IMG/VR virus record: IMGVR_UViG_3300021963_008171
Coordinates: 10,995-74,994 of that record
Length of the DNA: 64,000 bases
Strand: one strand, 5' to 3'
From: a virus
Lineage: Duplodnaviria > Heunggongvirae > Uroviricota > Caudoviricetes
This document shows positions 31,862 through 60,812 of this stretch, in pieces (within the stretch, counting starts at the first letter, position 1; each line of letters opens with the position of its first letter). Position numbers and translations under genes: made by a program. The notes beneath the pieces were generated by a model. The model did no database searches. It was not told the DNA's origin and worked only from the letters and a program-made list of their open reading frames with translations.

Positions 31862-32764
31862 ATGAAAGTAATTTGGGTCCTAGAAAATATCAGGAAAGAC
31901 CATAAATTTTTTTTACCAGAAATAGAACTTCTTGGATTGATCGCTTCTATTTCTAATTGGAAATTACTGTATCCAGAAACAAACACGCATCTTTATTGTG
32001 ATTCCACAGTACTCGAATATCTAACCAAGATAGAAATATTAGATCTCTGGGATAACGTACACACAGAAGAACTTTGCACAGAGGACAAAATAAACAGAAG
32101 GGCTTTCTGGGCAGCTTCAAAAATTAAAATTCTAAGAAATATAGAGGCTCCTTTTATAATAATGGACTGTGATCTTTATTTTAAAAAAAGATCTCTAGAT
32201 CTTGATTCTTTTCAAAAATTTGACATAGTAACAAATCAGATAGAAGATGGATTGGGATACTATCCAACAAAGAGAGATCCTATTATAAAAGAAATGAATG
32301 ATCCTTTTAAATACAGATCCTCACACGCATTCAATGTTGCCTTTCTTTATATAGGCTGTGAAAAAATTAGAAGGGAATACACAAATTTAGCATATTCATG
32401 GATGGAAGATTTATCTTCAAAAAATCCAGACATTGGGATTTTAACCGGAAAGCATATGATTTTCTGTGAACAAAAGATGCTAAAGGAATTTTCAGATCTT
32501 TATGATTCTAAGGTAATATCCCTAGCAGATCATATGATAAAAGGAGCGGAAGAAAGAATACCTATGATGGATGGATATGAATCTTTAAATCTTAGAGATT
32601 CAGATTATGTGCATCTGCACAGATTAAAAAGCAGAGTTAAATTCAATTCCGGGCTGTTTATTGATACCAGAAGTGATATCATTAAATCTATATACAATCT
32701 AAGTCCAGAGAGATCTAAGAAAGCATTCTCAGCATTAAAGCTCTCTAATCAGGATCTATTCTAA
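31862..32764 (+). CDS. hypothetical protein (contains IIMDCDLYF, a possible DxD motif)
   Basis: 300-codon ATG ORF. No confident family assignment. Confidence 0.55.
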   Translation: MKVIWVLENIRKDHKFFLPEIELLGLIASISNWKLLYPETNTHLYCDSTVLEYLTKIEILDLWDNVHTEELCTEDKINRRAFWAASKIKILRNIEAPFIIMDCDLYFKKRSLDLDSFQKFDIVTNQIEDGLGYYPTKRDPIIKEMNDPFKYRSSHAFNVAFLYIGCEKIRREYTNLAYSWMEDLSSKNPDIGILTGKHMIFCEQKMLKEFSDLYDSKVISLADHMIKGAEERIPMMDGYESLNLRDSDYVHLHRLKSRVKFNSGLFIDTRSDIIKSIYNLSPERSKKAFSALKLSNQDLF

Positions 32765-33380
32765 CCTTTCTTTTATCCGAAATGATGTAATCGTAAATTA
32801 CATCATTTTCTATTTCTACTCCAATATATTCTAGCATCCTTGCAATTTCTGAAATGTTATGGCCGACAAAAAGATCTTCATAATAAAATATAGGCCACGA
32901 ATTTTGTTCTGCTATTGAGGTCATTTTATAGGAAAAATATTTGAAAGATTCGATTTCATTCTTTAGTCTTTCCCGATCTATTTTATTTACATCATATATC
33001 TTAGGAATATCCCACCCAATCTTAGAATCTAGATTTATTAAAAGACTTTCTGCCTGTAATCCTTTATCTCTTCTATCCAAAACTATAACCTTATCAAAGA
33101 ATTCTTTCATCCAATCAGTAAATCTTCTTTCATCGTTTCCTGTCGATTTTTTGGGATGCTGGCTACATCCAAAAAGGGTTTTAGTTAATACCTGATCGTA
33201 TTTAAAAAAAGGATCTATATAATCAAAATCAAAACCTTCTTTATAATATGTAACGTAATTTTTTGGATTATATGGTTCATAGAAACATTGAAATCCCTTT
33301 GGATGTAAATGCGATTCCAACATTCTATATAAGGAGGTTGAACCTGTTCTTGGCCTAGCTAATATTGCTATTTTACTCAT
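32745..33380 (-). CDS. Stf0-type sulfotransferase-like protein
   Basis: 5'-PSB-like loop ILARPRTGSTSL and 3'-PB-like VIVLDRRDKGLQAESLL. Paralogous to the two upstream genes. Confidence 0.7.
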   Translation of the reverse strand: MSKIAILARPRTGSTSLYRMLESHLHPKGFQCFYEPYNPKNYVTYYKEGFDFDYIDPFFKYDQVLTKTLFGCSQHPKKSTGNDERRFTDWMKEFFDKVIVLDRRDKGLQAESLLINLDSKIGWDIPKIYDVNKIDRERLKNEIESFKYFSYKMTSIAEQNSWPIFYYEDLFVGHNISEIARMLEYIGVEIENDVIYDYIISDKRKVRIDPD

Positions 33381-33407
33381 TACATATCTATCCTAATGGT
33401 TTGGATA

Positions 33408-33989
33408 TCAAATTAATCTCTTTCCTGATTTCCCTCCTCTTAATTTATTCTGAGGATTTACTATGTTAATTTTAGGGGTAAACCCTAGATAAGATGCTAT
33501 TTTTTCACCTCCCGTGTTATTGAAATATAGATCTTCGTATGTTACCTGTATACAGTCCTTTAGTGATTTAAAATATTTATTTCTTATTACTATTGATTCG
33601 TGAACGGATCTTATCCTTTCCTCGTTATCCAATAGAAATTCGTTATTTATTTCATAATATGAAACGTCCCACTTATCATTAACTAAATTATTATGCCACC
33701 TATTATGAACGTTTGCCCAAACTACGCTTTCTGCTTGAGCCATAGAATCATTCCTTGTTAAAACTATTCTTTTATCAAAGAAATCCTTACCATTATCATA
33801 ACTCCATCTATTATCAGTTGATATCTTAACTATACACTCATTCATCTTTTCCAATTTAATTCCTTTAAAAAATTCCTCATGTTTAGGATTTAGCAACTCG
33901 TGATAATACGTTATACCGGTCTCAAGTTCTAACCATTCCCCCAGAGATCTTGATCCAGTCCTGTAGTCGGTGTATATTAATATTCTCAT
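33408..33989 (-). CDS. Stf0-type sulfotransferase-like protein
   Basis: ILIYTDYRTGSRSL and IVLTRNDSMAQAESVVWA. Confidence 0.7.
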   Translation of the reverse strand: MRILIYTDYRTGSRSLGEWLELETGITYYHELLNPKHEEFFKGIKLEKMNECIVKISTDNRWSYDNGKDFFDKRIVLTRNDSMAQAESVVWANVHNRWHNNLVNDKWDVSYYEINNEFLLDNEERIRSVHESIVIRNKYFKSLKDCIQVTYEDLYFNNTGGEKIASYLGFTPKINIVNPQNKLRGGKSGKRLI

Positions 33990-33992
33990 CTG

Positions 33993-34523
33993 CTATATCA
34001 ATTGTTTTTTCATATTTCTATATCTTTTAGATCCTATTTCGAATTTTGATTCAAATTCTAAATAATCCTCAATTTTCTTAAGACCCTCTTTTGAATAAAA
34101 TAATTCCTCATATGTTAAATGAAGACATTCTATTAATTTTTTAAATTCCACATTTTCAGAAATTATTTTATTTTCTATTTCTTTAATTTCTTGCTTGTTT
34201 GAATTTAAAAAATCATCCGATATAGAATATGCTGAAAATTTCTTTTCTTCTATTTCAGAATATAATCTACTTTCAGCTTGTTCCCTAGTATTTTCCCTTA
34301 CGAGAACTATTTTTTTATCGAACATATGTTTGATTCTATCATAAGAATCTTCGTCCGGGCAAACCTTGTATATTCCGAATGTGTGCGAATTCACAGCTTG
34401 GTCAAACTCATCGTTTGTTTTATAATGAAATCTTCTATAATAATCACAGCTATATTCTATCATCAAAAAGTTAGCTAATGATGTGGATCCTGTTCTATGG
34501 CTTGTGTATATTAATATTTTCAT
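33993..34523 (-). CDS. Stf0-type sulfotransferase-like protein
   Basis: ILIYTSHRTGSTSL and IVLVRENTREQAESRLYS. Confidence 0.7.
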   Translation of the reverse strand: MKILIYTSHRTGSTSLANFLMIEYSCDYYRRFHYKTNDEFDQAVNSHTFGIYKVCPDEDSYDRIKHMFDKKIVLVRENTREQAESRLYSEIEEKKFSAYSISDDFLNSNKQEIKEIENKIISENVEFKKLIECLHLTYEELFYSKEGLKKIEDYLEFESKFEIGSKRYRNMKKQLI

Positions 34524-35346
34524 TGATGTGCTTTAATATATTATTTGCAATCTCCTCATGCCCACTATAGCTTGGATGATAATCAACAATTTTACCATTT
34601 GTATCGTGCATAATAGTGTGCTTATCTTTGCGTATTTTATATGATATTCCATTATCGCCATCGGAAATTAAATTTTTTGGCTTCTCGCAACATTTAGGCC
34701 AGTAGTCTTCGTGTAGGATAAAAACATTAAATCCTATATTTAAGAGAATTTCATTTATTTGTATAAATCTCCAAACCTCCCTCTCGTAATATTTTTTGGT
34801 TGATATGAATTCTAAAAAAAAGTCTTGCATTAAATCATACTTTTTTTTAGATAATTTTAAATTTTCATTACGTAAATATTGCCCGGTGTTTGTATAGAGT
34901 AAGGTGTCTTCTCCCCCGTCCTCATAACTCTTGATTATATTATTAATAAAGACGGTTTTTAAGAAATATGGAGATTGATTATCGGGATCATATAAAAAAT
35001 CTCTAGGCTCAATGCACCACCCACCCAGGAGCTTTTGCTGTTTAACTAAGGGGAAGTCATATCTAGCGCTAGTCGATATTTGAATTATGATAATATCGTC
35101 TTTTTTAAAATTATTAAACTCCTTTAATATTCTATCTAAAATAGAATCGTTTGTTGACCCATTTACGCCATAGTTTAAAATATCAAATCCGATTTTTTCT
35201 GCTACATGTTCCGCCCATATTTTTTTTGTTGGATCGATATAATCAAGATATTTTGAATTGTAAAATGATTTAGGATCGCCCGACTTATCCTCTTTGCATC
35301 CGTGTCCCCACGTAAAACTGTCACCAAAAGCCCAGAGTTTACTCAT
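34495..35346 (-). CDS. SGNH/GDSL hydrolase-like protein
   Basis: Block I LWAFGDSFTWGHG and block V-like IVDYHPSYSGHEEIA. Confidence 0.65.
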   Translation of the reverse strand: MSKLWAFGDSFTWGHGCKEDKSGDPKSFYNSKYLDYIDPTKKIWAEHVAEKIGFDILNYGVNGSTNDSILDRILKEFNNFKKDDIIIIQISTSARYDFPLVKQQKLLGGWCIEPRDFLYDPDNQSPYFLKTVFINNIIKSYEDGGEDTLLYTNTGQYLRNENLKLSKKKYDLMQDFFLEFISTKKYYEREVWRFIQINEILLNIGFNVFILHEDYWPKCCEKPKNLISDGDNGISYKIRKDKHTIMHDTNGKIVDYHPSYSGHEEIANNILKHINENINIHKP

Positions 35347-35930
35347 ATTAATTTTTTTTCAAAATTTAAAAAAGAAAACATATTATAATATTTTCTATCC
35401 TCTTTAATCATATTCATCATAATACCATATTGGTCGGGATAAGTACTTTTAATATAATTTTTAATATAATTAGGGCTCCTCCATATATTAAATTCTTTAA
35501 AATTATATCTATCTTTATCGTATGGTTTCATTTTTCCCTCGAGAGATAAAAACAAAGTTAGATCTTTCAGTCTTAAAGCAATCGGCTTTTTATCCTTGGA
35601 TAAATAGGCCTCAAAAATAGTTCTATTCAGAATCCCACACCAGTGTGTTGACCCTAATTCAGAAACAAACAGGTTAATTAATTCTTCCTCCGTAATTCCT
35701 TCCCAGTTACTATGATTGTTCCACAAGCTTAAAATCTCTGTGTGTAGAGCACTATTTAGATGATCCTCAGGGTCTCTTAATATTATAACCCCCCAATTCA
35801 AATTCTTAAATTCGTCCCATCCGGCATCGAGCATAATTACTCCTTTTGTTTCTCCCCCGAAGGATCTTAAATATCTCGTTCCACACTTTAACGGTGTTAT
35901 AAATCTATTATCGATTTGTATTATCGTCAT
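35343..35930 (-). CDS. sulfotransferase-like protein (fourth, divergent)
   Basis: ITPLKCGTRYL resembles the PK.GTT 5'-PSB loop. ILRDPEDHLNSAL resembles the RDP..R..S 3'-PB motif. Confidence 0.45.
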   Translation of the reverse strand: MTIIQIDNRFITPLKCGTRYLRSFGGETKGVIMLDAGWDEFKNLNWGVIILRDPEDHLNSALHTEILSLWNNHSNWEGITEEELINLFVSELGSTHWCGILNRTIFEAYLSKDKKPIALRLKDLTLFLSLEGKMKPYDKDRYNFKEFNIWRSPNYIKNYIKSTYPDQYGIMMNMIKEDRKYYNMFSFLNFEKKLI

Positions 35931-36596
35931 TTAAATACTTTAAAAAATATTCACATTGAACTAATTGGCCTATCTCACCGAATTGATCGTCATTTAGCTC
36001 GTTTTTTGTTTCTTCCTTAATAGTCTGAGCACCAATTTTTTTAAGATGATTGTACAGATCTGTTACATCCCCTCCTATGTAATATGGCTTGTGTATTTTT
36101 TTATCAAACGTCCAATAATAAACTTTAAACCCTATAGATCTAGATAATAGATTAATTAGATTTTCCCAGCTAAATATTTCATCGAGCCACGACTCGTTGA
36201 TCCTATTATCGTGCAATTCCTTTATTGTTGTTAAATTAATACCGCTCAAAAACTCTGGGGTATTCACATGTTTTAATACATACGGTCTAGATGTAACAAC
36301 TCCCCATTATATTGATTAACTATTCTAAAATTTTGAATATCGGACCAACCAATAATGACAATATCTTCTTTCTTAATCGATGCAGAGAGTTTACAGAACC
36401 ACTCAAATATATCATAGTTAGATTGTCCTCCTATAGCATAATTTTTTAAACCAAGATTTAATTTTTCAGAAAGAAGCTCTGACCACGACTTAGGAAATTT
36501 TCCGGACCTGTATTGATTGTAATAATGATATCGACGCTCTTTCGTCTTTCCGAATATAGCGGAAGAATTATCTCCGAATATCCATAAATCGCTCAT
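35908..36596 (-). pseudogene. split SGNH hydrolase paralog (two ORFs, 36273..36596 and 35908..36267, in different frames)
   Basis: The N-terminal piece (LWIFGDNSS...YAIGGQSNYDIFEWF...DIVIIGWSD) parallels the N-terminus of 36593..37291. The C-terminal piece (..DDQFGEIGQLVQCEYFLKYL) parallels DMHFSENGNRQMSEYLYDLI, with the catalytic His position read as Gln. Confidence 0.5.
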
Positions 36597-37291
36597 AGTA
36601 ATTTTACTTTTTTGGTATTATCATAGGATTTAATTAGATCATAAAGATATTCAGACATTTGTCTATTTCCATTTTCACTGAAATGCATATCATAGATTTC
36701 GCCGTTTGTTTCTTCGAATATGGTTTCTATTTTTTGCTTTATCGGCGTAACAAACAATCCTCCTTCTTCCTGTTTAAATGGAGACCAATTAATTATAATA
36801 TTATCCGGATATATGTGATTGATTAATTTAATATATCTATTAATCTCGTCAACATATGGAAGTTCGCACCTATTAACAATTATTTCATTTAATGCGTCCA
36901 CACTAATGTCAGTTAAATAACTTGTATCAGATATTGTGGATATCAACTGCGAATCTTTGTCTTTGTTATTTAAATTATCTGGCCTAATTGTTAAAAAACT
37001 GCCATTCCTTGAAGCTACTCTAAATCTAATCGTAGACGACCATCCGATAATTATGATGTCTTCCCTATCGATTTTATTTAAACTATCAATTATAGAATCC
37101 ATGATGGTATAATTGTCTGCTCCGCCTATTCCCAGGTTTCTAGAAGGCATTCCCAGTTTTGCAGACAAAAAATCAGAAAATACCTTCGGAACATATTTTT
37201 TCCAATTGATATAATCCCTCCTCCATTTTACTAAAAATCGTCCTTCGTTTGTTTCTGAGAACGAATCACCAAAGATCCATAGTTTTGGCAT
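36593..37291 (-). CDS. SGNH/GDSL hydrolase-like protein
   Basis: LWIFGDSFSE, LGIGGADNY and DMHFSENGNRQM (the D-x-H block). Confidence 0.65.
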   Translation of the reverse strand: MPKLWIFGDSFSETNEGRFLVKWRRDYINWKKYVPKVFSDFLSAKLGMPSRNLGIGGADNYTIMDSIIDSLNKIDREDIIIIGWSSTIRFRVASRNGSFLTIRPDNLNNKDKDSQLISTISDTSYLTDISVDALNEIIVNRCELPYVDEINRYIKLINHIYPDNIIINWSPFKQEEGGLFVTPIKQKIETIFEETNGEIYDMHFSENGNRQMSEYLYDLIKSYDNTKKVKLL

Positions 37292-37302
37292 AAAATTACC
37301 AG

Positions 37303-37416
37303 TTAGGAATGCTTATTTCTTATTGCTGTAAATATTGTGCTTAGTATAGCTAAGCAGACAGTTTTGTCTGAAGCCTGTACTTGAGTTGGTGTGGATTTGT
37401 CTAATAATTTTGCCAT
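37303..37416 (-). CDS. possible 37-aa protein with a short hydrophobic segment
   Basis: Not in the track. MAKLLDKSTPTQVQASDKTVCLAILSTIFTAIRNKHS fills the only gap in the minus-strand operon. Confidence 0.3.
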   Translation of the reverse strand: MAKLLDKSTPTQVQASDKTVCLAILSTIFTAIRNKHS

Positions 37417-37424
37417 TTTTTTTA

Positions 37425-38825
37425 TTATTTTTCTGGGACGAAGTTGTGTGTTATTACGCTACCTAGTAGATTAACCCCGGTAATTCCGTTTAAATCTGTA
37501 CCTGCTACAAATACGTCATCAGGCTCTATGTTTATTGTTGTGATATTACCGTTGTACCATTCTAAATTTATTGAATTTATGTCAGCAACAATTTCATCTG
37601 AGATTACAATTGAATCTGTGTCCTCTATATCACTTGCTATTTTGAATTTAACGATGCCTGTGTTTTTTTCCCTAATTAATAGTTTTTCGTTTGGAGTTAC
37701 CAGTGTACTTCCGTTTAATGATCCATTGGAATATTCTATTCTTGGAAGCCAACCCTGAAATGTTGAGGTTAATTTATTAATAACAGATGCTGAAGAATAC
37801 GTGATTAACTCAGATATTGATAAAGATGATGACCAATTTAAACTCTCTGTTGAAAGTTCGTCTTTATTTAAACCTGATATAGAAATAGATTTAATTACAT
37901 CTCCTATATCAATGGAGTTTAAATCAATGGAAATTTCCTGATCTTCTACAATTTTAATAACCTCGTATTCGCTGGGTGTTCCCGTAGAATTCATGGGATT
38001 TGAGAAATACATAGACCTCCATTTATTGTCTAATTTATTATCTGTATATGTTATTTCAGTTTCCGCTAGTGGTACTGTGTTAGAATAAACACATCCCCCC
38101 ATATCAATAATGGTTTCAGCATCCTCTAATAATAGCGTCCATGTTCTGATCACGTTTGAAATTTTCCCATTTTCTAACGTATTTTCGTCAAATCTATATT
38201 CCTGCAGCATACTTGTACCATCTAGTGTAGATTTTAAATTTGACAGATTCGTTTCATTGTCTATTTTATAAAATGCGGGATATTCATTTTTTTCAAAATC
38301 TGGCAGTATTTTTTTAGCTATAACGTTAGGATTTAAACCGTTATCTATTAATTCGTTTAGATTATCAAATGTAACATTATCATCTGGGTGTAAAAGACAC
38401 GTTTTGGGTAAAATTCCCTCATTGTTTGATTCAAATAGCAATTTTACCATTTCAGACTTATCCCTGCAATAAAGATCGTCTATGATGGCAGTTAAATCAT
38501 ATGCGCATCTCAGATAAAATGTACTTTCGTCTACAACTATAGAAGGTGTAGTCAAGCTATTATTTGGAACTACAATTAACTCCAGTATTATGCTGTTATT
38601 GTCACAAAAATCTTGAAACTTAGAAATAGCAGACTGTGAAATGTGCTTTTTTTTGTAAACTAGTATTAGCTTAGTATACGAATTAGACGTCAAATATGTC
38701 ATTAAATTATCCAATTCTAGAAATTCGATAGTTGTGTGAAAAAGATCAACATCTGTGTTTGTTTCTAAGAATTTTATGTCGTTTTCCAATTTTAAAAAAT
38801 CGGATCCTATTAATACTGCTTTCAT
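37425..38825 (-). CDS. hypothetical protein (466 aa)
   Basis: Long ATG ORF inside the minus-strand operon. No recognisable motif. Confidence 0.6.
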   Translation of the reverse strand: MKAVLIGSDFLKLENDIKFLETNTDVDLFHTTIEFLELDNLMTYLTSNSYTKLILVYKKKHISQSAISKFQDFCDNNSIILELIVVPNNSLTTPSIVVDESTFYLRCAYDLTAIIDDLYCRDKSEMVKLLFESNNEGILPKTCLLHPDDNVTFDNLNELIDNGLNPNVIAKKILPDFEKNEYPAFYKIDNETNLSNLKSTLDGTSMLQEYRFDENTLENGKISNVIRTWTLLLEDAETIIDMGGCVYSNTVPLAETEITYTDNKLDNKWRSMYFSNPMNSTGTPSEYEVIKIVEDQEISIDLNSIDIGDVIKSISISGLNKDELSTESLNWSSSLSISELITYSSASVINKLTSTFQGWLPRIEYSNGSLNGSTLVTPNEKLLIREKNTGIVKFKIASDIEDTDSIVISDEIVADINSINLEWYNGNITTINIEPDDVFVAGTDLNGITGVNLLGSVITHNFVPEK

Positions 38826-38835
38826 ATATTGTTTT

Positions 38836-39417
38836 TTATAAATATTTATTTTTTCTCTCCATTATTTTTTCTTTCAATAAAAATGGAATCTTTTCTTCGA
38901 TACTAAAGGTTTCGTCGTTATATAATAGATGAAAATCGTCTAAAAACTCAGTTTTAAAATTGGTAATATTTCCGTACGATAAATACCAGCTATCAATTGT
39001 AACAGATTCATCGTATGTTCTATCCCTATTTTTAACCCTATTAATACACACGTCCAGCGGCGCATATAGCATAAACATTATGGTTTTGTATCCATTAATA
39101 TTCAACTTTTTGCGCTGTTTCCTTATAGAATCTATATATCTACCAACTGTATCGATGACTATATTATCCCCATGGGCTATAGCTTCTAAAAATGTATTAT
39201 AACTAATATCCTTTGCACTCTCGAAAAACTTAGAAGCCTGTCCTGCCTGATCCTCGCTGAAATCTGTTATTTTAACCCCCATCCCCGAGCCTTTTAATAG
39301 TTTTTCGTATGGGATGTCAACATTAATCTTCTTAAAAGAACTAAAATATCTATCGGAAAATGTAGTTTTACCACTTCCCCCAGAGCCACAAACAAAGACT
39401 GCTATCTTATCTTTCAT
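38836..39417 (-). CDS. P-loop NTPase/kinase
   Basis: Walker A motif VFVCGSGGSGKTTFS at the N-terminus. 193 aa, kinase-sized. Confidence 0.6.
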   Translation of the reverse strand: MKDKIAVFVCGSGGSGKTTFSDRYFSSFKKINVDIPYEKLLKGSGMGVKITDFSEDQAGQASKFFESAKDISYNTFLEAIAHGDNIVIDTVGRYIDSIRKQRKKLNINGYKTIMFMLYAPLDVCINRVKNRDRTYDESVTIDSWYLSYGNITNFKTEFLDDFHLLYNDETFSIEEKIPFLLKEKIMERKNKYL

Positions 39418-39874
39418 TTACCCATTTTTTTATTGATTCAATATCCTCATTGTGTTTAATTAGTTCTGGCTCTGTTTCTAGTATCCATAATTTATCCTTT
39501 AGAATAAATTCAGGCTTTAAAACCCTTATTGAGTAACCCCCGGATGATATCGTGTTAAAAATGTTTTCTACGTAATTAACAAACAAGTGAAATTCCCCGC
39601 ATTTGTTTTTATTAAATCCGGTGTATACCTCAAAATTAAATCCAAGATCCTGGTTGACTATTAAATCACCCCGATACAATCTAAATTTCCTTTGTAAAAT
39701 ATTTTCGTAAATGTCCCAATCTTTTTTTAAAATATTAAGATCTATATCAGAAATATCTCTACTTATTACCCCTTGTAGATTTAAGCTTAAAGATCCTCCG
39801 ACAATTATATTACCCTCTGTGATACTGTAAATTTCTTTGAATATCTCCTCGTAGGGTCCGTGTAGTTTAATCAT
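39407..39874 (-). CDS. minimal nucleotidyltransferase (pol-beta-type fold)
   Basis: IVGGSLSLNLQGVISRDISDIDLNI fits hG[GS]x9-13Dh[DE]h. Confidence 0.55.
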   Translation of the reverse strand: MIKLHGPYEEIFKEIYSITEGNIIVGGSLSLNLQGVISRDISDIDLNILKKDWDIYENILQRKFRLYRGDLIVNQDLGFNFEVYTGFNKNKCGEFHLFVNYVENIFNTISSGGYSIRVLKPEFILKDKLWILETEPELIKHNEDIESIKKWVNER

Positions 39875-40422
39875 ATTAATGTCTTTTTAAATCCACCAGA
39901 TCCTTTAAGAGAAACCCAATTGACCAAAGAATATCTGATCCCGCTAATAACAGGGGTTACCCTGTGTGGTGTGTCGGAATAAAAGATCAATAAGGTTCCT
40001 GTGTTAACATTTGGAGTTGTTAAATTACCATTATCGTCTTTGAATTGTAGATATCCCCCGTCATAATCATTATTGAGTACGATTACAACCGAACAATATC
40101 TTTCTCTGTAGACATCGTCTGAAGAATCTGTATGCCAATTATAATATTCATCGGGTTTGTATTCAGTAAATTGATATCTACCTAGATTTGTTAATTCGTG
40201 TCCCTTAACATTCATGGTTTTTCTTAGAATTTCCTTTAATCTATCATCTAAACCATCAATCTTATCTATAAATCCCACTGATGATTTTCTAGCGTTAGAA
40301 ATACCAGAATTTGCCACTTTTGCTGCGGTTAGATTCAATTCAGTTTTATACTTTATTATACATTCGAAACATTCATCCTCTGTTAAAAATCCACAAAAAA
40401 CTTGAACGTTCCTATTCATCAT
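39871..40422 (-). CDS. 2OG-Fe(II) oxygenase (P4H-like)
   Basis: HxD in NWHTDSSDD, the distal His in DTPHRVTPV, Arg in IRYSLVNWV, and VVIVLNNDYDGGYLQF. Confidence 0.75.
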   Translation of the reverse strand: MMNRNVQVFCGFLTEDECFECIIKYKTELNLTAAKVANSGISNARKSSVGFIDKIDGLDDRLKEILRKTMNVKGHELTNLGRYQFTEYKPDEYYNWHTDSSDDVYRERYCSVVIVLNNDYDGGYLQFKDDNGNLTTPNVNTGTLLIFYSDTPHRVTPVISGIRYSLVNWVSLKGSGGFKKTLI

Positions 40423-40633
40423 TCATCTTTTTTAGTCCGTATTTAATACATTTGTACCATATTCTTTCGTGCAAATAGTATTGAATGGGTTTCCACAGGA
40501 GCTCTGCAACACCAAAGGCTGCCCCAATCTTTATTGATCCGGTTACTATCCACATTGTTAAAAATCCAATCGTAGTACTAAGCACCCTATAGCTAATTGT
40601 TTTTGCTATGTGTCTCTTTTTCTCTACTATCAT
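40412..40633 (-). CDS. DUF2061-type small membrane protein
   Basis: RHIAKTISYRVLSTTIGFLTMWIVTGS...ELLWKPIQYYLHERIW matches the R..KT.sYR...Yy.HER.W pattern as remembered. Confidence 0.6.
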   Translation of the reverse strand: MIVEKKRHIAKTISYRVLSTTIGFLTMWIVTGSIKIGAAFGVAELLWKPIQYYLHERIWYKCIKYGLKKMNDE

Positions 40634-40653
40634 ATATTATATGTGTATAAAAA

Positions 40654-41031
40654 CTATCCTTTGCTTACGTCATATTTTATAGACCCATCAGCTGACATAT
40701 GACCAGTTCTTATAGCAGTACCGCTTATTGCTCCTACCTCTGCTGGCGGTTCATGGTAAATCACATCATATCCTACTCCCCTTCCATAATTAACACTTTC
40801 TATATCAGGTATAACGGAGATAAAAAGTCTCCCGGTTTGTAAATAATCGTTCAGTTCGATTTTTAATTCATCAAAAACTTGCAATGCAGATTTTGGATTG
40901 TTTTCGTCTTGCGGTACGTCTCTAATTGCGACCCAGACATTCTTCCCCTGACTAAATTGCTGATCTATTAACCACTGGTGTCCTTTGTGCCAGTTTTGCC
41001 ATCTTCCGATGTATAACGCGTATTTTTTCAT
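40654..41031 (-). CDS. minimal HxGH-type nucleotidyltransferase (cytidylyltransferase-like superfamily)
   Basis: YIGRWQNWHKGHQWLI carries the (H/T)xGH motif, and ISGTAIR matches the ISxTxxR motif. 125 aa. 4-nt overlap with the APS-kinase gene. Confidence 0.65.
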   Translation of the reverse strand: MKKYALYIGRWQNWHKGHQWLIDQQFSQGKNVWVAIRDVPQDENNPKSALQVFDELKIELNDYLQTGRLFISVIPDIESVNYGRGVGYDVIYHEPPAEVGAISGTAIRTGHMSADGSIKYDVSKG

Positions 41032-41465
41032 ATAGATTCTAGACCCAAAATACTGATAAGTTCCTCGAACGATTCATTCAGATCATCACCATTTACAAAT
41101 GCCTTATAATTATCAACGGGCAGCTCAAATGCTTGTACATGGAGTTTATCCTTTCCTGAGAAATGCGGCCTATTAAACAGTATCTCAGTGACCTCGTTAT
41201 TCGCTTTTAAATCCTCCCTAATTGCACGATAAGGACAAACCATACTTATCACTACATCATATCCTTTTTGGCTCATAAAACGAGCTATTGTAAAGGATCT
41301 TTCTATGTTTCTAATTCTCCCCGAATATGAATAATCAGTATTTGGAAATATCTCTCTTAAATCGTCGCCGTCTATCCAAATTGTTTTTTCGCCCAATCTT
41401 TCTACGAGCATACTAGACATTTGGGTTTTTCCTGTGCCAGGCTGCCCGATAAACAAATAAATCAT
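41028..41465 (-). CDS. cysC: adenylyl-sulfate (APS) kinase-like
   Basis: IYLFIGQPGTGKTQMSS...IWIDGDDLREIFPNTDYSYSGRIRNIERSFTIARFMSQKGYDVVISMVCPYRAIRE aligns with E. coli CysC LWFTGLSGSGKSTVAG...[53 protein letters not shown]. The lid region appears shortened. Confidence 0.7.
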   Translation of the reverse strand: MIYLFIGQPGTGKTQMSSMLVERLGEKTIWIDGDDLREIFPNTDYSYSGRIRNIERSFTIARFMSQKGYDVVISMVCPYRAIREDLKANNEVTEILFNRPHFSGKDKLHVQAFELPVDNYKAFVNGDDLNESFEELISILGLESI

Positions 41466-41476
41466 ATATTTTTAAA

Positions 41477-41593
41477 TTAATGGTTATATGTGAACGGATC
41501 TCTTTTTCTGATCTCCTCTATTTTCTTCATGAACTCCTTCTTTTTCCTTCTTTTTTCGAAGTAATCCTTGATCCAGTTTAGTATCTTTTTCAT
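41477..41593 (-). CDS. possible 38-aa very basic protein at the head of the minus-strand operon
   Basis: Not in the track. MKKILNWIKDYFEKRRKKKEFMKKIEEIRKRDPFTYNH, with ATG 41593 and TAA 41477-41479. Confidence 0.3.
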   Translation of the reverse strand: MKKILNWIKDYFEKRRKKKEFMKKIEEIRKRDPFTYNH

Positions 41594-41694: not shown

Positions 41695-42918
41695 ATGGTT
41701 TGGAATTACCAAGATACAGTGCTAGTTCATGTGGAACTTTCCAATCTTTGCAATGCTGCTTGTCCCCTTTGCCCAAGATATGTAAACAATTCGTTAAGGG
41801 TCAATCCAGAATTGGACTTGGGCAGCGTTTCTTTTGAGGATTTTAAAAAATGGTTCCCTCTAGAATTTGTACAAAAAAGTAAAGGATGGATATTCTGCGG
41901 TACTAATGGCGACCCCATGATGGCTAGAGACGTGTATGAGATATTAGAATATGTTCTCAGAAATTCGACTGCTAAGGTCCAGGTCAACACTAACGGTTCC
42001 ATAAGAGACGGGGAATTTTGGGAAAAAATAGGATCTTTATTTGCCGAGCCCTGTGAAAATAGCAGATATGTTGTTTTCTCTGTTGATGGACTGGAGGACA
42101 CGAACCACATCTACAGAAGAAACGTGAAATGGGAGAGGGTGATGGAAAATATGAGAGCCTATGCAAAATCAGGATCTACTGGTATTTGGGACTTTCTAAT
42201 ATTCAAGCACAATGAGCATCAGCTAGAGGAGGCTGAGCTTCTCTGCAAAGAAATAGGTCTAGCATTTTCTCCAAAAAGACCCTTTGGGTTTGAAACGGGA
42301 AATCCTGATGAATACCAGGACTTAATGGTTTATGACATGGAAGGAAATTTTTTATACAAGATAGAGCCGGCCAGCGAGGAGTGGAGATTAAATAGATCCA
42401 TGAATAAATTTGAGAGAGGAGAGGAAAAAATATGGATTCCGGGAAAGGGGAAAAGAACAGATGATGAAATCAAAGAAAAGTGGAATGGACTGATCGAGAG
42501 GGATCTTCCTAAATATAAATTCCCGGAAAGATTCAAAGAAAAATCAGTTAGTTGCAAATCTTGCCATCCTATCGGGAAGGAAATTTATGTTGATTGTAAG
42601 GGAAATGTTATGCCTTGCTGCTTTGTTGGAACAATGTACAACAGTGACTTTCAACACCACGAGGCATTACAGATAAAAAAACATTTATGGGACTGGGGAT
42701 TGGATAAAATAAATCTGAATAATCATTCTCTCAAAGATATACTAGATAGCAAATATCTAGATGAGGTTTTTGCCAACCGCTGGGAAGGAGCTAAGGATGA
42801 GGATAAAATGGGATATTGCTTTAACACATGCTCGGTTGATCACATGAAAGATCTTTTTGTCAGAAAGGAAAATCTACCAATTTCTTCAGAAAAATCAGGC
42901 AAAAAAAGTCTTATCTAG
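41695..42918 (+). CDS. radical SAM enzyme with a Cys-rich (SPASM/twitch-like) C-terminal region
   Basis: CxxxCxxC in LSNLCNAACPLCPRY. The C-terminal region has CKSCHP...CKGNVMPCCF...CFNTC. Confidence 0.75.
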   Translation: MVWNYQDTVLVHVELSNLCNAACPLCPRYVNNSLRVNPELDLGSVSFEDFKKWFPLEFVQKSKGWIFCGTNGDPMMARDVYEILEYVLRNSTAKVQVNTNGSIRDGEFWEKIGSLFAEPCENSRYVVFSVDGLEDTNHIYRRNVKWERVMENMRAYAKSGSTGIWDFLIFKHNEHQLEEAELLCKEIGLAFSPKRPFGFETGNPDEYQDLMVYDMEGNFLYKIEPASEEWRLNRSMNKFERGEEKIWIPGKGKRTDDEIKEKWNGLIERDLPKYKFPERFKEKSVSCKSCHPIGKEIYVDCKGNVMPCCFVGTMYNSDFQHHEALQIKKHLWDWGLDKINLNNHSLKDILDSKYLDEVFANRWEGAKDEDKMGYCFNTCSVDHMKDLFVRKENLPISSEKSGKKSLI

Positions 42919-42933
42919 GGACATTTTTTGGGC

Positions 42934-42944
42934 GATATATAAAA
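42934..42944 (+). promoter_or_regulatory. GATATATAAAA motif
   Basis: Ends 1 nt before ATG 42946. Confidence 0.35.
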
Positions 42945-42945
42945 T

Positions 42946-45441
42946 ATGAACGATAAGATAAATTTAGTCTATGACGATTGGCCTCTTGATCAGGAAAGGC
43001 CGAATCCCAATGGAGATAAATATTTTCCAGAAGCAAATGCCTGGATGACTGGTGATGGTCCGATGGAGACTCTTCGATACTGCAATTACGTCAACCGAAG
43101 AATGGAAGATGTCGACAAGTACCAGGAGGAAAATTTCTTTTATGTTGTTTGGCATCGACATTCTCTCTATGACAGATTTTTGTATTTTGACAGACTTCCA
43201 ATAGGTGATGATATGATAGGGGCTTTCCAAAGAAAGCCAAATCTTTATCTTCTTTTAATAAACGATCAAGAGATAGAGCCTATAGAAACTATAAGCAAAC
43301 TTGATCTCGCTCTAGAAAGAAATAATATAGATCCAAGAAAGGTTTTTGTAGTTAACAACAATTCTAGAAATTGGGAATATAAAAAAGAATTGGGGAGTAA
43401 TATTAATGTTCATAGTACGAGGGCAATGCCTCTAGCATTGGCTAAAATTCCCAGAAGTAATTTCGTAGAGAATAAAGAAGGGCATTTTTTCATGTCACAC
43501 AACCATTCTTTAAGAGAAAGCAGATCCGCGTTTGTGTGTCTCTTAAAAAAATATGGACTGATCGATGATTTTGATTGGTCTTATTTGAAGCTCTGGAGAC
43601 TACCTGGTGAGGATTGGATAACTATCTATAGAAGAATATTCAACGATTCCGATATGGAATTCATGATGCCAGAAATAGAATATTTTAATTCTTATGGTAT
43701 TAAGAAAAGCAATTACGAGTCACATTTTCCGTGGCTTGATGAAATGACAACTAATAGTCCTTCTTGGTGGGAAACATTTAATTCACAGCAGTACGAGAAT
43801 ACCTATTTTAATGTAACTGTGGAAACACAATATTTTGGAAGGGACCTTCACATAACAGAAAAGTCATTTAAACCCTTTATCCATCTGCAGTTTCCTATGA
43901 TTCTTGCCTCCAGACATCATATAAAACATATGCGGGAGTATTACGGGTATGATTTTTTCGATGATGTGATTAACCACGATTATGATAACGTCGTAAGTGA
44001 TAGAGATAGAATCTTTAGGTTCATAGAAGAACTAAAAAGAATTCAGGAGAATAAAGAATTCTTTATCGATTTTTATAAAAATAACAAGGAAAGATTTCGG
44101 AGGAATCAAGAAATGGTTTATCAATTCACCAATGAATATGATGCTAGCTATTTCAGGGCATTGACAAAATTTGATCACCCAAAGAAAACCCTTAATCTTG
44201 TTTATGATAATTGGGATACCCAAACTAATCGCCCATTAAGAGGCAATTCTGAAGATCTTTACCTAAGTACATTCCACATGAATGTTGACAGTGTAGTTGG
44301 ATCCTTACAATTTGATAGAAGATTAATCAGAAGATATAGATTGGAAGATGTTCCTAAGATAAAAAATGAGACATTCTTTTATTTTGTCACCTTAATTCCT
44401 GGCATCCTAGCGGAGAATTTAAGATCTGGAAAACTACCAATAAATAGAGATGCTATCAACATGCTCAAGAATTATTCAAACTTTAATGTGATAATAATGA
44501 ATGAGCAGGAAGCAGAAAGAAAAGAAACACTGGTTCTTCTTGATAAATGGTCCAAAGAATCCGGCTTAAATCAGCAACAAATTTGGTTTTCTAATAACAA
44601 CCCAAGACTACAAGAATTCAAAGAGGAAATAGGAACTGATATAAATGTTCATTCGACAGTTAGACTTGCTAATTTCACAGCAAATTCTGTTATACATTCA
44701 GTGGGAAGGGTGGAGTTCAAGTCTGAGAAAGACGGGGAATTTTTCATGTGTCACAATAGAAGGCCAAGACCGCATAGATATGGTTTACTATGCTTGCTTA
44801 AAAAGAGCGGGGTTTTAGATGATGTTGATTGGTCTTTAGTTCAAGGGTTTCAGTTCAAGGGAAATAAGCACCCTGAATCCTTCTTTAGAACAATATTTAA
44901 CGATGAAGATATAGAAAACATGAGAGAAGAAATTGAGTACTTCTCTAACATAGAACAAAAGAAAAGTAGATACGAGGAAGAAAGAACATGGTTCGATGAT
45001 AGGGAAAATGAAAATAATGTTCCTTGGAATGAAACCTATGATAAAAATCAGTTGGAAAATTCATATTTCAATATCACAACAGAAACTGAATTTTCATCAG
45101 ATCTGACACACATATCAGAAAAATCTTTCAAAGCTTTCTGTGCAATGCAGTTTCCCATGATTCTTGCATCTGCTCACCACATCAGAGAAATTAAAAAGAA
45201 ATATGATTTTGATTTTTTTGATGATGTGATCAATCACGATTATGACGACGAAGAGAATCACAGAGACAGACTTTTTAAATTTGTAAAAGAGATAAAAAGA
45301 ATAAACGACAACAAGGAGTTCTTCATAGAATTTTATAAGAACAACAAATTTAGATTCGAGGAAAATCTTAGAAAAATAGAGGAGAAAGTAAAGGATCAAT
45401 CAGATTCTGACTTTTTAAAAAGAATATCTGGTATAATATGA
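42946..45441 (+). CDS. tandem-duplicated two-module enzyme, fucosyltransferase (GT10/GT11)-like C-terminal motif in each half
   Basis: The halves (aa 1-~411 and ~412-831) are colinear. Shared blocks: INLVYDDW/LNLVYDNW, NVHST, FFMSHN/FFMCHN, LCLLKK.G..DD.DWS, and HITEKSFKPFIHLQFPMILASRHH/HISEKSFKAFCAMQFPMILASAHH followed by FFDDVINHDYD. Confidence 0.45.
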   Translation: MNDKINLVYDDWPLDQERPNPNGDKYFPEANAWMTGDGPMETLRYCNYVNRRMEDVDKYQEENFFYVVWHRHSLYDRFLYFDRLPIGDDMIGAFQRKPNLYLLLINDQEIEPIETISKLDLALERNNIDPRKVFVVNNNSRNWEYKKELGSNINVHSTRAMPLALAKIPRSNFVENKEGHFFMSHNHSLRESRSAFVCLLKKYGLIDDFDWSYLKLWRLPGEDWITIYRRIFNDSDMEFMMPEIEYFNSYGIKKSNYESHFPWLDEMTTNSPSWWETFNSQQYENTYFNVTVETQYFGRDLHITEKSFKPFIHLQFPMILASRHHIKHMREYYGYDFFDDVINHDYDNVVSDRDRIFRFIEELKRIQENKEFFIDFYKNNKERFRRNQEMVYQFTNEYDASYFRALTKFDHPKKTLNLVYDNWDTQTNRPLRGNSEDLYLSTFHMNVDSVVGSLQFDRRLIRRYRLEDVPKIKNETFFYFVTLIPGILAENLRSGKLPINRDAINMLKNYSNFNVIIMNEQEAERKETLVLLDKWSKESGLNQQQIWFSNNNPRLQEFKEEIGTDINVHSTVRLANFTANSVIHSVGRVEFKSEKDGEFFMCHNRRPRPHRYGLLCLLKKSGVLDDVDWSLVQGFQFKGNKHPESFFRTIFNDEDIENMREEIEYFSNIEQKKSRYEEERTWFDDRENENNVPWNETYDKNQLENSYFNITTETEFSSDLTHISEKSFKAFCAMQFPMILASAHHIREIKKKYDFDFFDDVINHDYDDEENHRDRLFKFVKEIKRINDNKEFFIEFYKNNKFRFEENLRKIEEKVKDQSDSDFLKRISGII

Positions 45442-47105
45442 AAAAGGTACTAATTACAGGATGCAATGGTTTAGTTGGAAGCTATCTAAGAGATCTTTGT
45501 TTAGATAATGGATGGAAAGTTACTGGTGTAGATAGAAACGCAACAAAGAGAATTACCAGAGATTTTAATTACAAATTTAAAAAACTAGACTTATTAATAG
45601 AACAAAATATAATAGATCTTTTTAAAGATGAAAAATATGATGTAGTATTTAATTGTTTTGGAATTAAAGGATCTCCAGTAAGGGCAAAAAATAATCCTGT
45701 TGATTTTCTGTACCCGTCTTTTAAAATAAACACTGAGATAATAAATCAATGTTATTTAAACGACACGTGGTTGGTTTTTGTTAGCTCTGTTGGTGTTTAT
45801 AGCCCAGCAGAAAAATTCTCAGAAGATGATGTTTGGAAAACACTACCATCAGAATCCGATTGGTTTCCGTCTTGGTCTAAAAGAATGGGAGAATTGCTAT
45901 TGGAATCATATCGGGTTCAATATGGATACAACAAATGGACGATAGTAAGACCAGCAAATATATTTGGTGAATACGACGACTTTAGTGGTAGTGGAACATT
46001 GATATCAACCATGGTAAAAAAGGTCTACGAATCTTCTGGAGAGATTGAAGCATGGGGAGACGGCACACCTATCAGGGATTTTGTTTACGGAAAAGACGTT
46101 GCTTTGTCTTTAATAAAACTTTATGAAGAAGAAATAAACGATATAGTTAATTGCGGGTCAGGAATAGAGGTATCAATAAAAGATGTTGTTGAAGAAATTA
46201 TAAAAGCAAGCGGGAAGGAAATCTCAGTAAAATGGGATTCTTCTAAACCTAATGGAGATCTTAGAAGACTAATGGATACCACAAGACAGGAAATTCACGG
46301 GATAATGCCAAAAACCAATTTTTCCGATGCTATACTTAATGTTTATAAATATTACTCAGGTCTTTTCGAAGAGGAGTTACCAGTAATATCTAAAGACGAT
46401 TTGCTCGTCGAAGGTGCATATGTTGGAAAAATATCTGATTTCCTAGAGGAGGATGAATTAGAGCTTTTCAAAGAAATGATAGAGGATGTTAAAGAGTACT
46501 CCTCCGAAGATATTGAAAATAGACTTTCGTGCAAATATAATTATGACGATATAGTAAATGAATATGACCATAATATTCCACCCAGTAAAGTTGCGGAGAG
46601 AGATGCATTTATTCGAAAGAATAAATATCACGTTTGGCAAAAATGGTGGGATTTTAGGTATCCTAAAGAGTCATATTTCAGCGAGATAGCCACAAAAATA
46701 TTAAAGGATCTTTACCCACAGGCTGCCGCTGCTTTGAATGAGGCTAAGATATCAGGATCTATGGCACTTTTTGAAGATGGACATTTCATAGACATTCACA
46801 ACGATGGAGCTAATGTAGGAAGACTTTGTGTAATTATATTCTATCTCTCCGACCCTTCTGCTCATAATAACGGGGGAGGGGAATTAAGAATAATTACCAG
46901 CACAGGAAAAGAATTTATAATAGATCCAGTTTTTGATAATTTCTGCGTGATGGATTTTGCAAAGAATAACATAAAACATGAAGTAAAGATGGTTAATAAC
47001 GGATTTAAAAGATATACCTATATAAATTTTATATCACTCAAAGATGGGATTTTAGAATCAATTTTCCCGAACGAAATAAAAATAGAAAAGAAAAAAATAA
47101 TATGA
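45438..47105 (+). CDS. fusion protein: NAD(P)-dependent epimerase/reductase (extended SDR) plus C-terminal 2OG-Fe(II) oxygenase-like domain
   Basis: N-terminus VLITGCNGLVGSYL, RPANIFG and WGDGTPIRDFVY. C-terminus IDIHNDGANVGRLCVIIFYLSD...GGGELRI...IKHEV...RYTYINF, giving HxD, a distal His and an Arg. Confidence 0.65.
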   Translation: MKKVLITGCNGLVGSYLRDLCLDNGWKVTGVDRNATKRITRDFNYKFKKLDLLIEQNIIDLFKDEKYDVVFNCFGIKGSPVRAKNNPVDFLYPSFKINTEIINQCYLNDTWLVFVSSVGVYSPAEKFSEDDVWKTLPSESDWFPSWSKRMGELLLESYRVQYGYNKWTIVRPANIFGEYDDFSGSGTLISTMVKKVYESSGEIEAWGDGTPIRDFVYGKDVALSLIKLYEEEINDIVNCGSGIEVSIKDVVEEIIKASGKEISVKWDSSKPNGDLRRLMDTTRQEIHGIMPKTNFSDAILNVYKYYSGLFEEELPVISKDDLLVEGAYVGKISDFLEEDELELFKEMIEDVKEYSSEDIENRLSCKYNYDDIVNEYDHNIPPSKVAERDAFIRKNKYHVWQKWWDFRYPKESYFSEIATKILKDLYPQAAAALNEAKISGSMALFEDGHFIDIHNDGANVGRLCVIIFYLSDPSAHNNGGGELRIITSTGKEFIIDPVFDNFCVMDFAKNNIKHEVKMVNNGFKRYTYINFISLKDGILESIFPNEIKIEKKKII

Positions 47106-48076: not shown

Positions 48077-48077
48077 T

Positions 48078-60725: not shown

Positions 60726-60737
60726 CAAATTTTATAT

Positions 60738-60812
<75 letters not shown>

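Follow-up and report, generated by a model that had tools for sequence, protein, structure and literature searches.

A putative sulfate-activation and sulfation module conserved among uncultured large phages

Introduction

What use could a virus have for a long operon that appears to join an adenosine 5'-phosphosulfate (APS) kinase to several sulfotransferases? The question is raised by a stretch of 64,000 nucleotides (hereafter the window) from a member of the Caudoviricetes, positions 10,995 to 74,994 of the IMG/VR record IMGVR_UViG_3300021963_008171. The original prediction, made from the letters of the sequence, described here a block of 17 minus-strand genes that would couple synthesis of the sulfate donor 3'-phosphoadenosine 5'-phosphosulfate (PAPS) to four sulfotransferase-like and several SGNH esterase-like proteins. 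PAPS-dependent sulfation is well known from animals, rhizobia, mycobacteria, and a few marine bacteria. A literature search on phage and viral sulfotransferases found no such phage pathway described, in agreement with the remark in the original prediction that none of this size was known. The chemistry of sulfation is thus familiar, and what is new is a widespread and conserved sulfation module of large phages. We consider the block to be the form taken here by a gene module kept in uncultured large phages (up to ~316 kb), with a probability of roughly 0.6, and a capacity for sulfation on the part of the element is well supported.

A conserved core in large phages

The listing of open reading frames (ORFs) bears out the arrangement of the block: 17 co-oriented ORFs lie on the minus strand from 41593 down to 32745 (Table 1), and neighbouring ORFs either overlap by 4-29 nt or stand 3-27 nt apart. 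A scan of the minus strand inside the block for terminator-like sites found none, the sign of the GC skew flips across exactly the stretch 41593-32745, and between the block and the radical SAM/SPASM gene that runs divergently on the plus strand there are 100 nt of intergenic DNA.

The proteins of the window were mapped onto 80 related IMG/VR loci, of which the 30 with at least 9 kb on each side are referred to as full. From the presence of each protein in the full loci (Table 1), and from a gene order that is usually that of the window, a conserved core can be separated from accessory genes. This core consists of the APS-kinase-family protein (APSK), an HxGH nucleotidyltransferase, a DUF2061 membrane protein, one or more 2-oxoglutarate (2OG) oxygenases, a protein modelled with ATP-grasp and Hint domains, and one or more sulfotransferases; the remaining genes are accessory. 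Sulfotransferase paralogs and the kinase occur together in 23 of the 30 full loci, and their association is no accident of the window. Relatives of the kinase are found on IMG/VR contigs of 111-245 kb at ~81% identity, with a second group at 43%. To the latter belong distant phages (loci L003-L008) that combine the same short kinase with a canonical Sulfotransfer_3 protein (1e-16), two 2OG oxygenases, and glycosyltransferase family 2 (GT2) genes, and in which collagen-like fibre genes (Peptidase_S74, Mtd_N) stand directly beside the kinase-sulfotransferase cluster.

It may be asked whether the window is viral at all. Neither capsid, portal, nor terminase was found among 20 further window proteins compared with PHROGs and Pfam, and several large genes have no DNA or protein match in cultured phages: the cultured-phage collection gave no match by megablast with the block and with window positions 1-25000, or by tblastn with the sulfotransferase ST1 and a 767-aa window protein. 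Moreover, the trio of short kinase, HxGH, and DUF2061 genes is also seen on a few contigs of metagenome-assembled genomes (MAGs). A cellular origin, as a genomic island or as a bacterial contig binned wrongly, is nevertheless very improbable, given that the nearest relatives lie among the viral contigs of IMG/VR, at lengths of 111-316 kb. The genes are small, dense, and overlapping within the block, one related locus holds a thymidylate-synthase gene together with other phage-like nucleotide genes, and the window has genes for a transfer-messenger RNA (tmRNA), a tRNA, and SPFH and TROVE proteins, which together are typical of huge phages.

Sulfate activation

The kinase matches Pfam APS_kinase (PF01583) with an E-value of 5.4e-10 and 39.9 bits, the family cut-off being 21.1, as expected of the CysC-like APS kinase that had been predicted. 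It also matches APS kinases in the PDB (1.5e-7), and adenylyl-sulfate kinase accounts for all five of its best NCBIfam matches. In alignment with canonical domains it retains the P-loop and the motifs DGDxxR, N.DYS..GR..NI, and S.V.PY..R; the segments that align are GQPGTGKT, IDGDDLR, NTDYSYSGRIRNIER, and SMVCPYRAIRE, and the canonical segments are partly substituted in the phage kinase (F to Y, D to G). Judged by its family, the kinase would be expected to produce PAPS. APS kinase requires APS, however, and does not make PAPS alone, and the source of APS therefore decides whether the block can be described as one of PAPS synthesis. An APS-kinase-family enzyme is thus retained from the predicted coupling, and the idea that this kinase by itself suffices for PAPS is not.

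The gene adjoining the kinase encodes an HxGH protein with the motifs GRWQNWHKGH, YGRGVGY, and ISGTAIR, in which the NadM-type GRxQPxHxGH and SxTxxR motifs are present. The window protein matches no Pfam family and its NCBIfam scores are far under the cut-offs. ATP sulfurylase shares an HxxH motif and the superfamily with this enzyme. There are 3232 HxGH homologs at 70-90% identity, and the gene occurs on 312 IMG/VR viral contigs, up to 316 kb in length. An identical HxGH protein has been recorded on a further contig of 85.5 kb. Fusions were surveyed by an exhaustive search of representatives at 50% identity, from which the best 150 were taken, 34 of them at least 230 aa long. An APS-kinase domain is present in 29 of these 34 long HxGH representatives, 19 in the order APSK-HxGH and 10 in the order HxGH-APSK, and in some fusions it is a complete canonical APS_kinase domain (Pfam down to 1e-69). 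Fusions are found in cultured Xylella, Stenotrophomonas, and Xanthomonas phages; in one phage, which also encodes a terminase and a portal protein, the APSK::HxGH fusion lies directly before a Sulfotransfer_2 gene, in a T4-like phage it lies directly before DUF2061, and in an Acidobacteriota MAG an HxGH/APSK fusion is placed between cysDN and genes for glycosyltransferase-sulfotransferase fusions. Fusion in both orders and conserved adjacency couple HxGH to APS kinase and to sulfate activation at the level of the genome. They make a strong Rosetta-stone case that this abundant mini-nucleotidyltransferase partners APS kinase, and the HxGH protein is a candidate for a dedicated APS-kinase partner.

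Cultured phages offer a further form of the pair: Xylella phage Bacata (L009, 3142-4318) and 12 other cultured phage records hold a 246-aa APSK-like::HxGH fusion that is annotated just as 'kinase' or 'adenylylsulfate kinase' and that overlaps a NADAR (COG3236) gene; the 8.3-kb stretch of L009 contains no annotated sulfotransferase.

The third gene, for which a DUF2061-type membrane protein had correctly been proposed, scores 59.2 bits against a Pfam cut-off of 23.1 and follows HxGH in 79 of the 80 phage loci. A scan of species-representative genomes yielded 489 bacterial DUF2061 loci, and among the best 80 of these, 70 have cysC either directly after DUF2061 or fused to it, with cysD following in 60 and cysN in 54. 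A preprint places DUF2061 in a Mesorhizobium nod locus alongside nodH, nodP, and nodQ. By this genomic context DUF2061 is putatively assigned to sulfate activation, and the assignment is new. Several Bacteroidota genomes encode DUF2061 and APS kinase as a single fused protein of 278-357 aa, and fusions of this kind were recorded at loci L106-L108, L114, L128, L141, L145, L148, L160, L163, and L178. The phage-type trio of short kinase, HxGH, and DUF2061 was seen on four MAG contigs (L103, L104, L109, and L158) that bear the labels Chitinophagaceae, 'Bacteroides', Gammaproteobacteria, and Flavobacteriaceae, with DUF2061 sitting between kinase and HxGH in L109. These contigs are possibly mis-binned phage contigs or prophages, in which case they may hint at hosts. 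A further lead towards the host is that the cellular homologs nearest to DUF2061 come from Fluviicola and other Bacteroidota.

Sulfotransferases

Three paralogs, ST1 to ST3, close the block. ST1 matches ST2 at 1.7e-30, the hidden Markov model (HMM) of the ST3 family matches ST1 at 1.4e-11 and ST2 at 2.2e-11, and on these scores the three are judged to be true paralogs. The family has a PRTGSTSL loop that corresponds to the 5'-phosphosulfate-binding loop and an invariant R103...S112, the 3'-phosphate motif, within LDRRDK..QAES. Taken alone, the window proteins are at or below the Pfam threshold; across the family, Sulfotransfer_3 is matched by 13 of 19 members (best 2.3e-6) and Sulfotransfer_1 by 5 of 19, and the best sequence match in the PDB is the NodH sulfotransferase (0.005). 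Profile search, the check proposed with the original prediction, returned sulfotransferase models for members of the family and, above its cut-off, APS_kinase for the kinase. Structure prediction was run on ST3 and on the 466-aa protein of the block, and ST1-3 have the sulfotransferase fold; from fold and motifs they would be expected to use PAPS. They had been called Stf0-type, and fold and motifs agree with this. The Pfam model of the Stf0 family (Sulphotransf, PF09037) is absent among the Pfam matches of all 19 members, and the term is one of resemblance in fold and motif only. A single-sequence locus search with ST1 found nothing.

A fourth, divergent sulfotransferase had been proposed at 35343-35930, and here the outcome was different. 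The 195-aa protein does have two motifs of the PAPS-binding type, PLKCGTRYL and R52...S60 in ILRDPEDHLNSAL, which are conserved across 8 family members with the consensus PLKCG(T/S)xYL and R..P..HL.SAL and with the expected spacing from R to S. No Pfam match was found in any of the 8 members, no PDB profile match was obtained, and hhalign gave a probability of 1% against the ST family and likewise no support against a canonical sulfotransferase. The protein was accordingly rejected as a fourth sulfotransferase; its assignment is unproven, and of the four that had been counted three are supported and one has the motifs only. The single, multiply sulfated product that had been deduced from four such enzymes is conjectural. 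A single-sequence locus search with this protein found nothing and an alignment-based search with its family found 4 loci only. In L011, a 223-kb contig, a homolog lies just upstream of HxGH-DUF2061; no kinase is detectable in L011, and the surroundings include a thymidylate-synthase-like gene, a phosphoribosyltransferase, a PNP/UDP phosphorylase, and a B12-radical-SAM gene.

Where does the APS come from?

Homologs of cysD and cysN were found neither in the window nor in the phage loci. A Sat-type ATP sulfurylase had no match in Pfam scans of the window ORFs of at least ~290 aa, the ORFs at 8301-9194, 48976-50421, 50989-52383, and 59334-60251 being outside these scans and no dedicated search having been made. 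Bacteria arrange the genes as DUF2061-cysC-cysDN; with phages that have APSK-HxGH-DUF2061 and no detected cysD or cysN, the simplest reading is that HxGH provides the sulfate-adenylylating step, and the enzyme plausibly fills the role of ATP sulfurylase. In its full form this reading would add to the two classes of ATP sulfurylase a third of distinct structure, formed by the abundant, NMNAT-like mini-nucleotidyltransferases. Together with a lid-less kinase and DUF2061 these would constitute a compact PAPS synthase, at work in large phages by the hundred and in some bacteria. A new class is possible, and the full form is offered tentatively, at somewhat less than even odds. A literature search on novel ATP sulfurylases returned nothing relevant.

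Several observations weigh against this assignment or against the PAPS-based reading of the module as a whole. The nearest solved relatives of the HxGH profile in the PDB are archaeal nicotinamide mononucleotide adenylyltransferases (NMNATs; 1e-5), and no ATP sulfurylase was found in that search. The kinase, for its part, falls far below the curated NCBIfam cut-offs (50.8 bits against 127 for the best model, 40.9 against 138.7 for TIGR00455), and ~18 residues that include the KGLYKK...FTG lid (KGLYKKAR...FTGI) are deleted in all short-form phage kinases. In the Acidobacteriota MAG the fusion stands beside canonical cysDN and is there not needed as the sole ATP sulfurylase. About a quarter of the phage loci have HxGH-DUF2061 with no detectable kinase nearby, and in the Xylella-type phages the fusion adjoins a NADAR gene, sulfotransferases having been checked in that neighbourhood only. 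The window, moreover, covers 64 kb, the whole genome is probably much larger, and a canonical ATP sulfurylase may be encoded elsewhere in it. With respect to the first point, alignment of HxGH with NMNAT is confined to profile positions 2-79, the protein being some 45-55 residues short of the 168-181-aa NMNAT chains; faint matches to PF01747 (Sat) below the cut-off (1.6e-4, 9e-3) occur on two fused HxGH relatives only.

Two further pairings of such an enzyme with a kinase were considered and rejected, namely a NadR-like pair for NAD salvage and a pair of phosphopantetheine adenylyltransferase (PPAT, which is the JGI label for HxGH) and dephospho-CoA kinase. In both cases the decision lay with the fused kinases, which are canonical APS_kinase domains, and with the travelling of DUF2061 with cysC-cysDN.

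A more serious alternative is a route to an analogue of PAPS, in which HxGH would make a nucleoside-diphosphate-linked group, the kinase would phosphorylate its 3'-OH, and the proteins of the sulfotransferase fold would transfer a group other than sulfate. In the O-methyl-phosphoramidate (MeOPN) pathway of Campylobacter jejuni, Cj1415 is homologous to CysC, and Cj1416 is a cytidylyltransferase of the HxGH type. Cj1415-Cj1418 jointly make a cytidine diphosphate (CDP)-phosphoramidate 3'-phosphate (PMC11800397), and this precedent gains force from the divergence of the lid-less phage kinase, from an HxGH sequence unlike that of ATP sulfurylase, and from the extra kinase and extra nucleotidyltransferase in the window. 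These last two genes are not conserved across the related loci, however, and no partner resembling a glutamine kinase or an amidohydrolase was found in the block by Pfam and NCBIfam, which leaves room for distant homologs. Many of the fusions have a fully canonical APS_kinase domain, fusions adjoin canonical Sulfotransfer_1/2 genes, and DUF2061 in bacteria accompanies cysC-cysDN, all of which makes a PAPS-analogue route improbable.

Until now phage cysC has been interpreted as an auxiliary metabolic gene (AMG) of sulfur assimilation (PMC10914622). According to this view the kinase would boost assimilatory sulfate reduction in the host and the rest of the block would be unrelated. The cysC genes of large freshwater phages have been interpreted in this manner and are transcribed in situ (PMC10914622). 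Neither cysH nor another PAPS reductase was found among the block genes or the Pfam-scanned flanking genes, however, and the co-occurrence of sulfotransferase paralogs with the kinase in most full loci, together with cassettes of fusion plus sulfotransferase in unrelated phages, renders an ordinary AMG still less probable than the analogue route.

Proposed mechanism and acceptor

Under the preferred reading, of a PAPS-based sulfation module, the infected cell would be supplied with its own activated sulfate donor and with several enzymes that consume it. HxGH would adenylate sulfate (ATP + sulfate giving APS + pyrophosphate), and the neighbouring kinase would phosphorylate the 3'-OH of APS to give PAPS. 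DUF2061 might aid sulfate activation at the membrane, possibly through access of sulfate or through anchoring. The sulfotransferases would then pass the sulfate to hydroxyl or amino groups of an acceptor. In the building of this acceptor the oxygenase(s), the ATP-grasp ligase, and the SGNH proteins would presumably assist, as would the glycosyltransferases, epimerases, and radical SAM enzymes encoded in the flanks.

The favoured guess for its nature, at nearly even odds, is a glycan, which could belong to the virion or to the envelope of the host. The block is flanked by two GT7-like glycosyltransferases, a GT2, another phage-type glycosyltransferase, two sugar epimerases/dehydratases, and DUF6734, and in other elements the APSK::HxGH unit adjoins a Sulfotransfer_2 gene or glycosyltransferase-fused sulfotransferases; Sulfotransfer_2 is a family of carbohydrate sulfotransferases.

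A protein or peptide acceptor, such as a collagen-like fibre protein, comes second and is somewhat unlikely. It is a live alternative because the core includes the ATP-grasp/Hint model and P4H-type oxygenases and the window has a collagen-like ORF. PAPS would still be the donor, and the acceptor would be either hydroxylated residues of a collagen-like fibre or a small peptide whose processing would fall to the ATP-grasp/Hint protein, the 2OG oxygenases, and radical SAM/SPASM enzymes; the two variants share the one modest probability. The oxygenase, predicted to be P4H-like, proved to be so by its 2OG-FeII_Oxy_3 match and matches an NCBIfam Fe2+-dependent dioxygenase as well, and the full loci that have it contain one to four paralogs. 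The 466-aa protein, which had been listed as unknown, now models with moderate confidence as an N-terminal ATP-grasp-like domain, of the acid-amine ligase type, and a C-terminal Hint-like domain that ends in an invariant HN. Its homologs (P0187-P0272) exist in three length forms, of 457-472, 545, and 615-619 aa, the longest having a second Hint domain (PT-HINT, Hint_2, Intein_splicing) directly after the invariant HN, which suggests autoprocessing. Further points for a protein acceptor are the neighbouring radical SAM/SPASM gene, the collagen-like ORFs both in the window (62932 onward) and beside the L003 kinase-sulfotransferase cluster, and an invariant DPFxY in the conserved 38-aa peptide at the block head. 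The flanks full of glycosyltransferases and sugar epimerases argue in the other direction, as do the Sulfotransfer_2 and glycosyltransferase-fused neighbours of APSK::HxGH elsewhere and the fact that ATP-grasp enzymes also amidate sugar acids, for example Cj1438 (PMC11800397).

Accessory genes of the block

Table 1. Features of the block and its divergent neighbours; positions are those of the window, and the last column gives presence among the 30 full related loci.
Feature	Position	Strand	Basis or remark	Full loci
Divergent neighbours, context without core status	41695..48983	+	Pfam; arrangement kept in closest relative	
Highly basic 38-aa ORF, block head	41477..41593	-	Conserved across many of the related loci	
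APS-kinase-family P-loop kinase, short form, 145 aa	41028..41465	-	Pfam APS_kinase	28/30
HxGH (HIGH-motif) nucleotidyltransferase, 125 aa	40654..41031	-	Motifs; candidate compact ATP sulfurylase	
DUF2061 (PF09834), small two-helix membrane protein	40412..40633	-	Pfam 5.4e-16	29/30
P4H/PKHD-type 2OG-Fe(II) oxygenase	39871..40422	-	2OG-FeII_Oxy_3 3.2e-15	25/30
Possible minimal pol-beta-type nucleotidyltransferase, accessory	39407..39874	-	DUF6036 0.07, GS...DxD motif	0/30
Zeta-toxin/AAA_33-type P-loop kinase (extra kinase), accessory	38836..39417	-	Zeta_toxin 7.6e-9, AAA_33 6.8e-8	3/30
466-aa core protein, N-terminal ATP-grasp-like and C-terminal Hint-like domain	37425..38825	-	Structure model	26/30
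37-aa ORF, probably no gene	37303..37416	-	Occupies 133-nt gap	
SGNH/GDSL-like protein a	36593..37291	-	Lipase_GDSL 2e-3, under cut-off; GDS, GG.DN, D.H blocks	13/30 (SGNH)
Decayed SGNH paralog, frameshift-split	35908..36596 (36273-36596 + 35908-36267)	-	Alignment with relatives	
195-aa protein with sulfotransferase-like motifs, assignment unproven	35343..35930	-	Motifs only	0/30
SGNH/GDSL-like protein b	34495..35346	-	Lipase_GDSL 6.3e-7, 30.2 bits vs 23.6; catalytic blocks present	13/30 (SGNH)
Sulfotransferase paralog ST1, 176 aa	33993..34523	-	RTGSTSL + R.....QAES motifs	25/30 (family)
Sulfotransferase paralog ST2, 193 aa	33408..33989	-	RTGSTSL + R.....QAES motifs	25/30 (family)
Sulfotransferase paralog ST3, 211 aa	32745..33380	-		25/30 (family)

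The SGNH genes form a family of their own within the block. Protein a is a clear paralog of the other two SGNH genes (BLAST 8e-10), and GDS and D.H (DxH) are kept in both intact copies. The pair of ORFs between them had been described as a split paralog, and both halves match single intact ORFs of ~230 aa in relatives. The copy in the window is frameshifted and reads GDN for GDS and DDQ for DxH, so that the catalytic Ser and His are gone; the gene is a decaying paralog, which leaves two intact SGNH genes. The 'O-acyl editing' that had been ascribed to these proteins is a guess at the level of the family. A GCS in place of GDS at the nucleophile block was seen in SGNH-like proteins of other loci (L085, 4216-4932; L079, 5543-6388; L023, 5714-6367).

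Among the remaining accessory genes, the predicted P-loop kinase exceeds the Pfam cut-offs of both Zeta_toxin and AAA_33 and is found in only 4 of the 80 related loci. The proposed minimal pol-beta-type nucleotidyltransferase keeps its GS...DxD motif, has no profile match better than that to DUF6036, and lacks a homolog in any of the 80 loci. The two small ORFs of the original list have parted company. The 38-aa ORF is conserved, with an invariant C-terminal RKRDPF(I/T)Y(N/K)H in related loci, where it is mostly close to the kinase and occasionally several kb off; for the 37-aa ORF no conserved counterpart was found in related loci, and it was rejected as a conserved peptide.

The wider window

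The divergent plus-strand genes contain a radical SAM/SPASM gene, an 831-aa duplicated protein, an epimerase-2OG fusion, an epimerase, and a 310-aa protein. ORFs of corresponding sizes follow in the same order in L001, and in L010 a radical SAM gene likewise adjoins the module. Altogether three radical SAM genes lie inside 11 kb (41695-42918, 48976-50421, and 50989-52383), the SPASM domain being on the first and the other two known from PHROG hits only. The 831-aa protein (42946-45441) consists of two similar halves and has no Pfam match; an ...ITEKSFK... segment in each half may, by eye, resemble fucosyltransferase motifs. In the gene at 45438-47105 an NAD-dependent sugar epimerase/dehydratase is fused to a C-terminal 2OG-Fe(II) oxygenase domain. 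Two adjoining genes of the beta-1,4-galactosyltransferase type (GT7) occupy 52383-55234, one of them with a Laminin_G_3/sialidase-N lectin-like domain; GT7 is a mostly eukaryotic family.

Elsewhere in the window, a tmRNA (Rfam RF00023, 80 bits, full length) and a tRNA-Met directly after it lie at 60314-60812; in this interval ARAGORN called the tRNA and missed the tmRNA. A TROVE/Ro60-like RNA-binding protein is encoded at 26845-28470 (PHROG 850, 5e-42), and an Rfam scan of the window found no Y-RNA-like family at threshold. The SPFH protein is common to 791 phage records. A long ORF of collagen-like Gly-X-Y repeats (62932-64000) continues past the end of the window and is the reason for the climb in GC to 46% there.

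Significance and comparison with known systems

Hundreds of large-phage contigs carry the module, which suggests that these phages commonly sulfate something during infection. The candidate targets are phage fibres or the host surface, and adsorption, superinfection exclusion, or the properties of the particle could be affected. Published data show that phage cysC transcripts exceed bacterial ones in some lake samples. If the module is indeed a compact PAPS synthase, phage cysC would serve the sulfation of a phage-specified product and not sulfur assimilation, and the interpretation of phage cysC genes as sulfur-assimilation AMGs would change. DUF2061 gains a concrete functional setting in sulfate activation, and a small and very abundant HxGH family is nominated as a new sulfate-activating enzyme which, if confirmed, would be useful for the enzymatic regeneration of PAPS.

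A viral parallel is provided by the cysC and cysH AMGs of freshwater phages (PMC10914622), with which the module shares cysC-like genes in large freshwater phages; here, however, the kinase is part of a conserved sulfotransferase module and no cysH was seen nearby. In comparison with the trehalose sulfotransferase Stf0 and with NodH, ST1-3 are shorter (176-211 aa, against 239-264 aa for the solved Stf0 and NodH chains). Among viruses of eukaryotes, chloroviruses and mimiviruses encode sugar-nucleotide, glycosyltransferase, and collagen-modifying genes, and we know of no sulfation arm in their glycosylation systems.

The coupling of a kinase to a nucleotidyltransferase recalls metazoan PAPSS1/2 and the bacterial Sat/APS-kinase and CysN/CysC fusions, which are among the PDB matches, and the fusion of relatives of the phage pair in both orders adds to the likeness to bifunctional PAPS synthases; the phage nucleotidyltransferase differs in being NMNAT-like, with no PF01747 domain and less than half the size. 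In the MeOPN pathway of C. jejuni (Cj1415-Cj1418; PMC11800397) an APS-kinase homolog and an HxGH enzyme likewise make a 3'-phosphorylated nucleotide donor, for the decoration of surface glycans, whereas the phage block shows no glutamine kinase or gamma-glutamyl-CDP-amidate hydrolase and has instead proteins of the sulfotransferase fold and the cysC-linked DUF2061. Finally, the rhizobial nodP-nodQ-nodH genes and the DUF2061-cysC-cysD-cysN operons of Bacteroidota resemble the phage module in clustering APS kinase, DUF2061, and small NodH/Stf0-like sulfotransferases. They differ from it in that the phage module has no GTPase-coupled CysDN/NodPQ nearby, a 125-aa HxGH protein standing in that place, and in that the phage kinase is lid-less and the element that carries it is viral.

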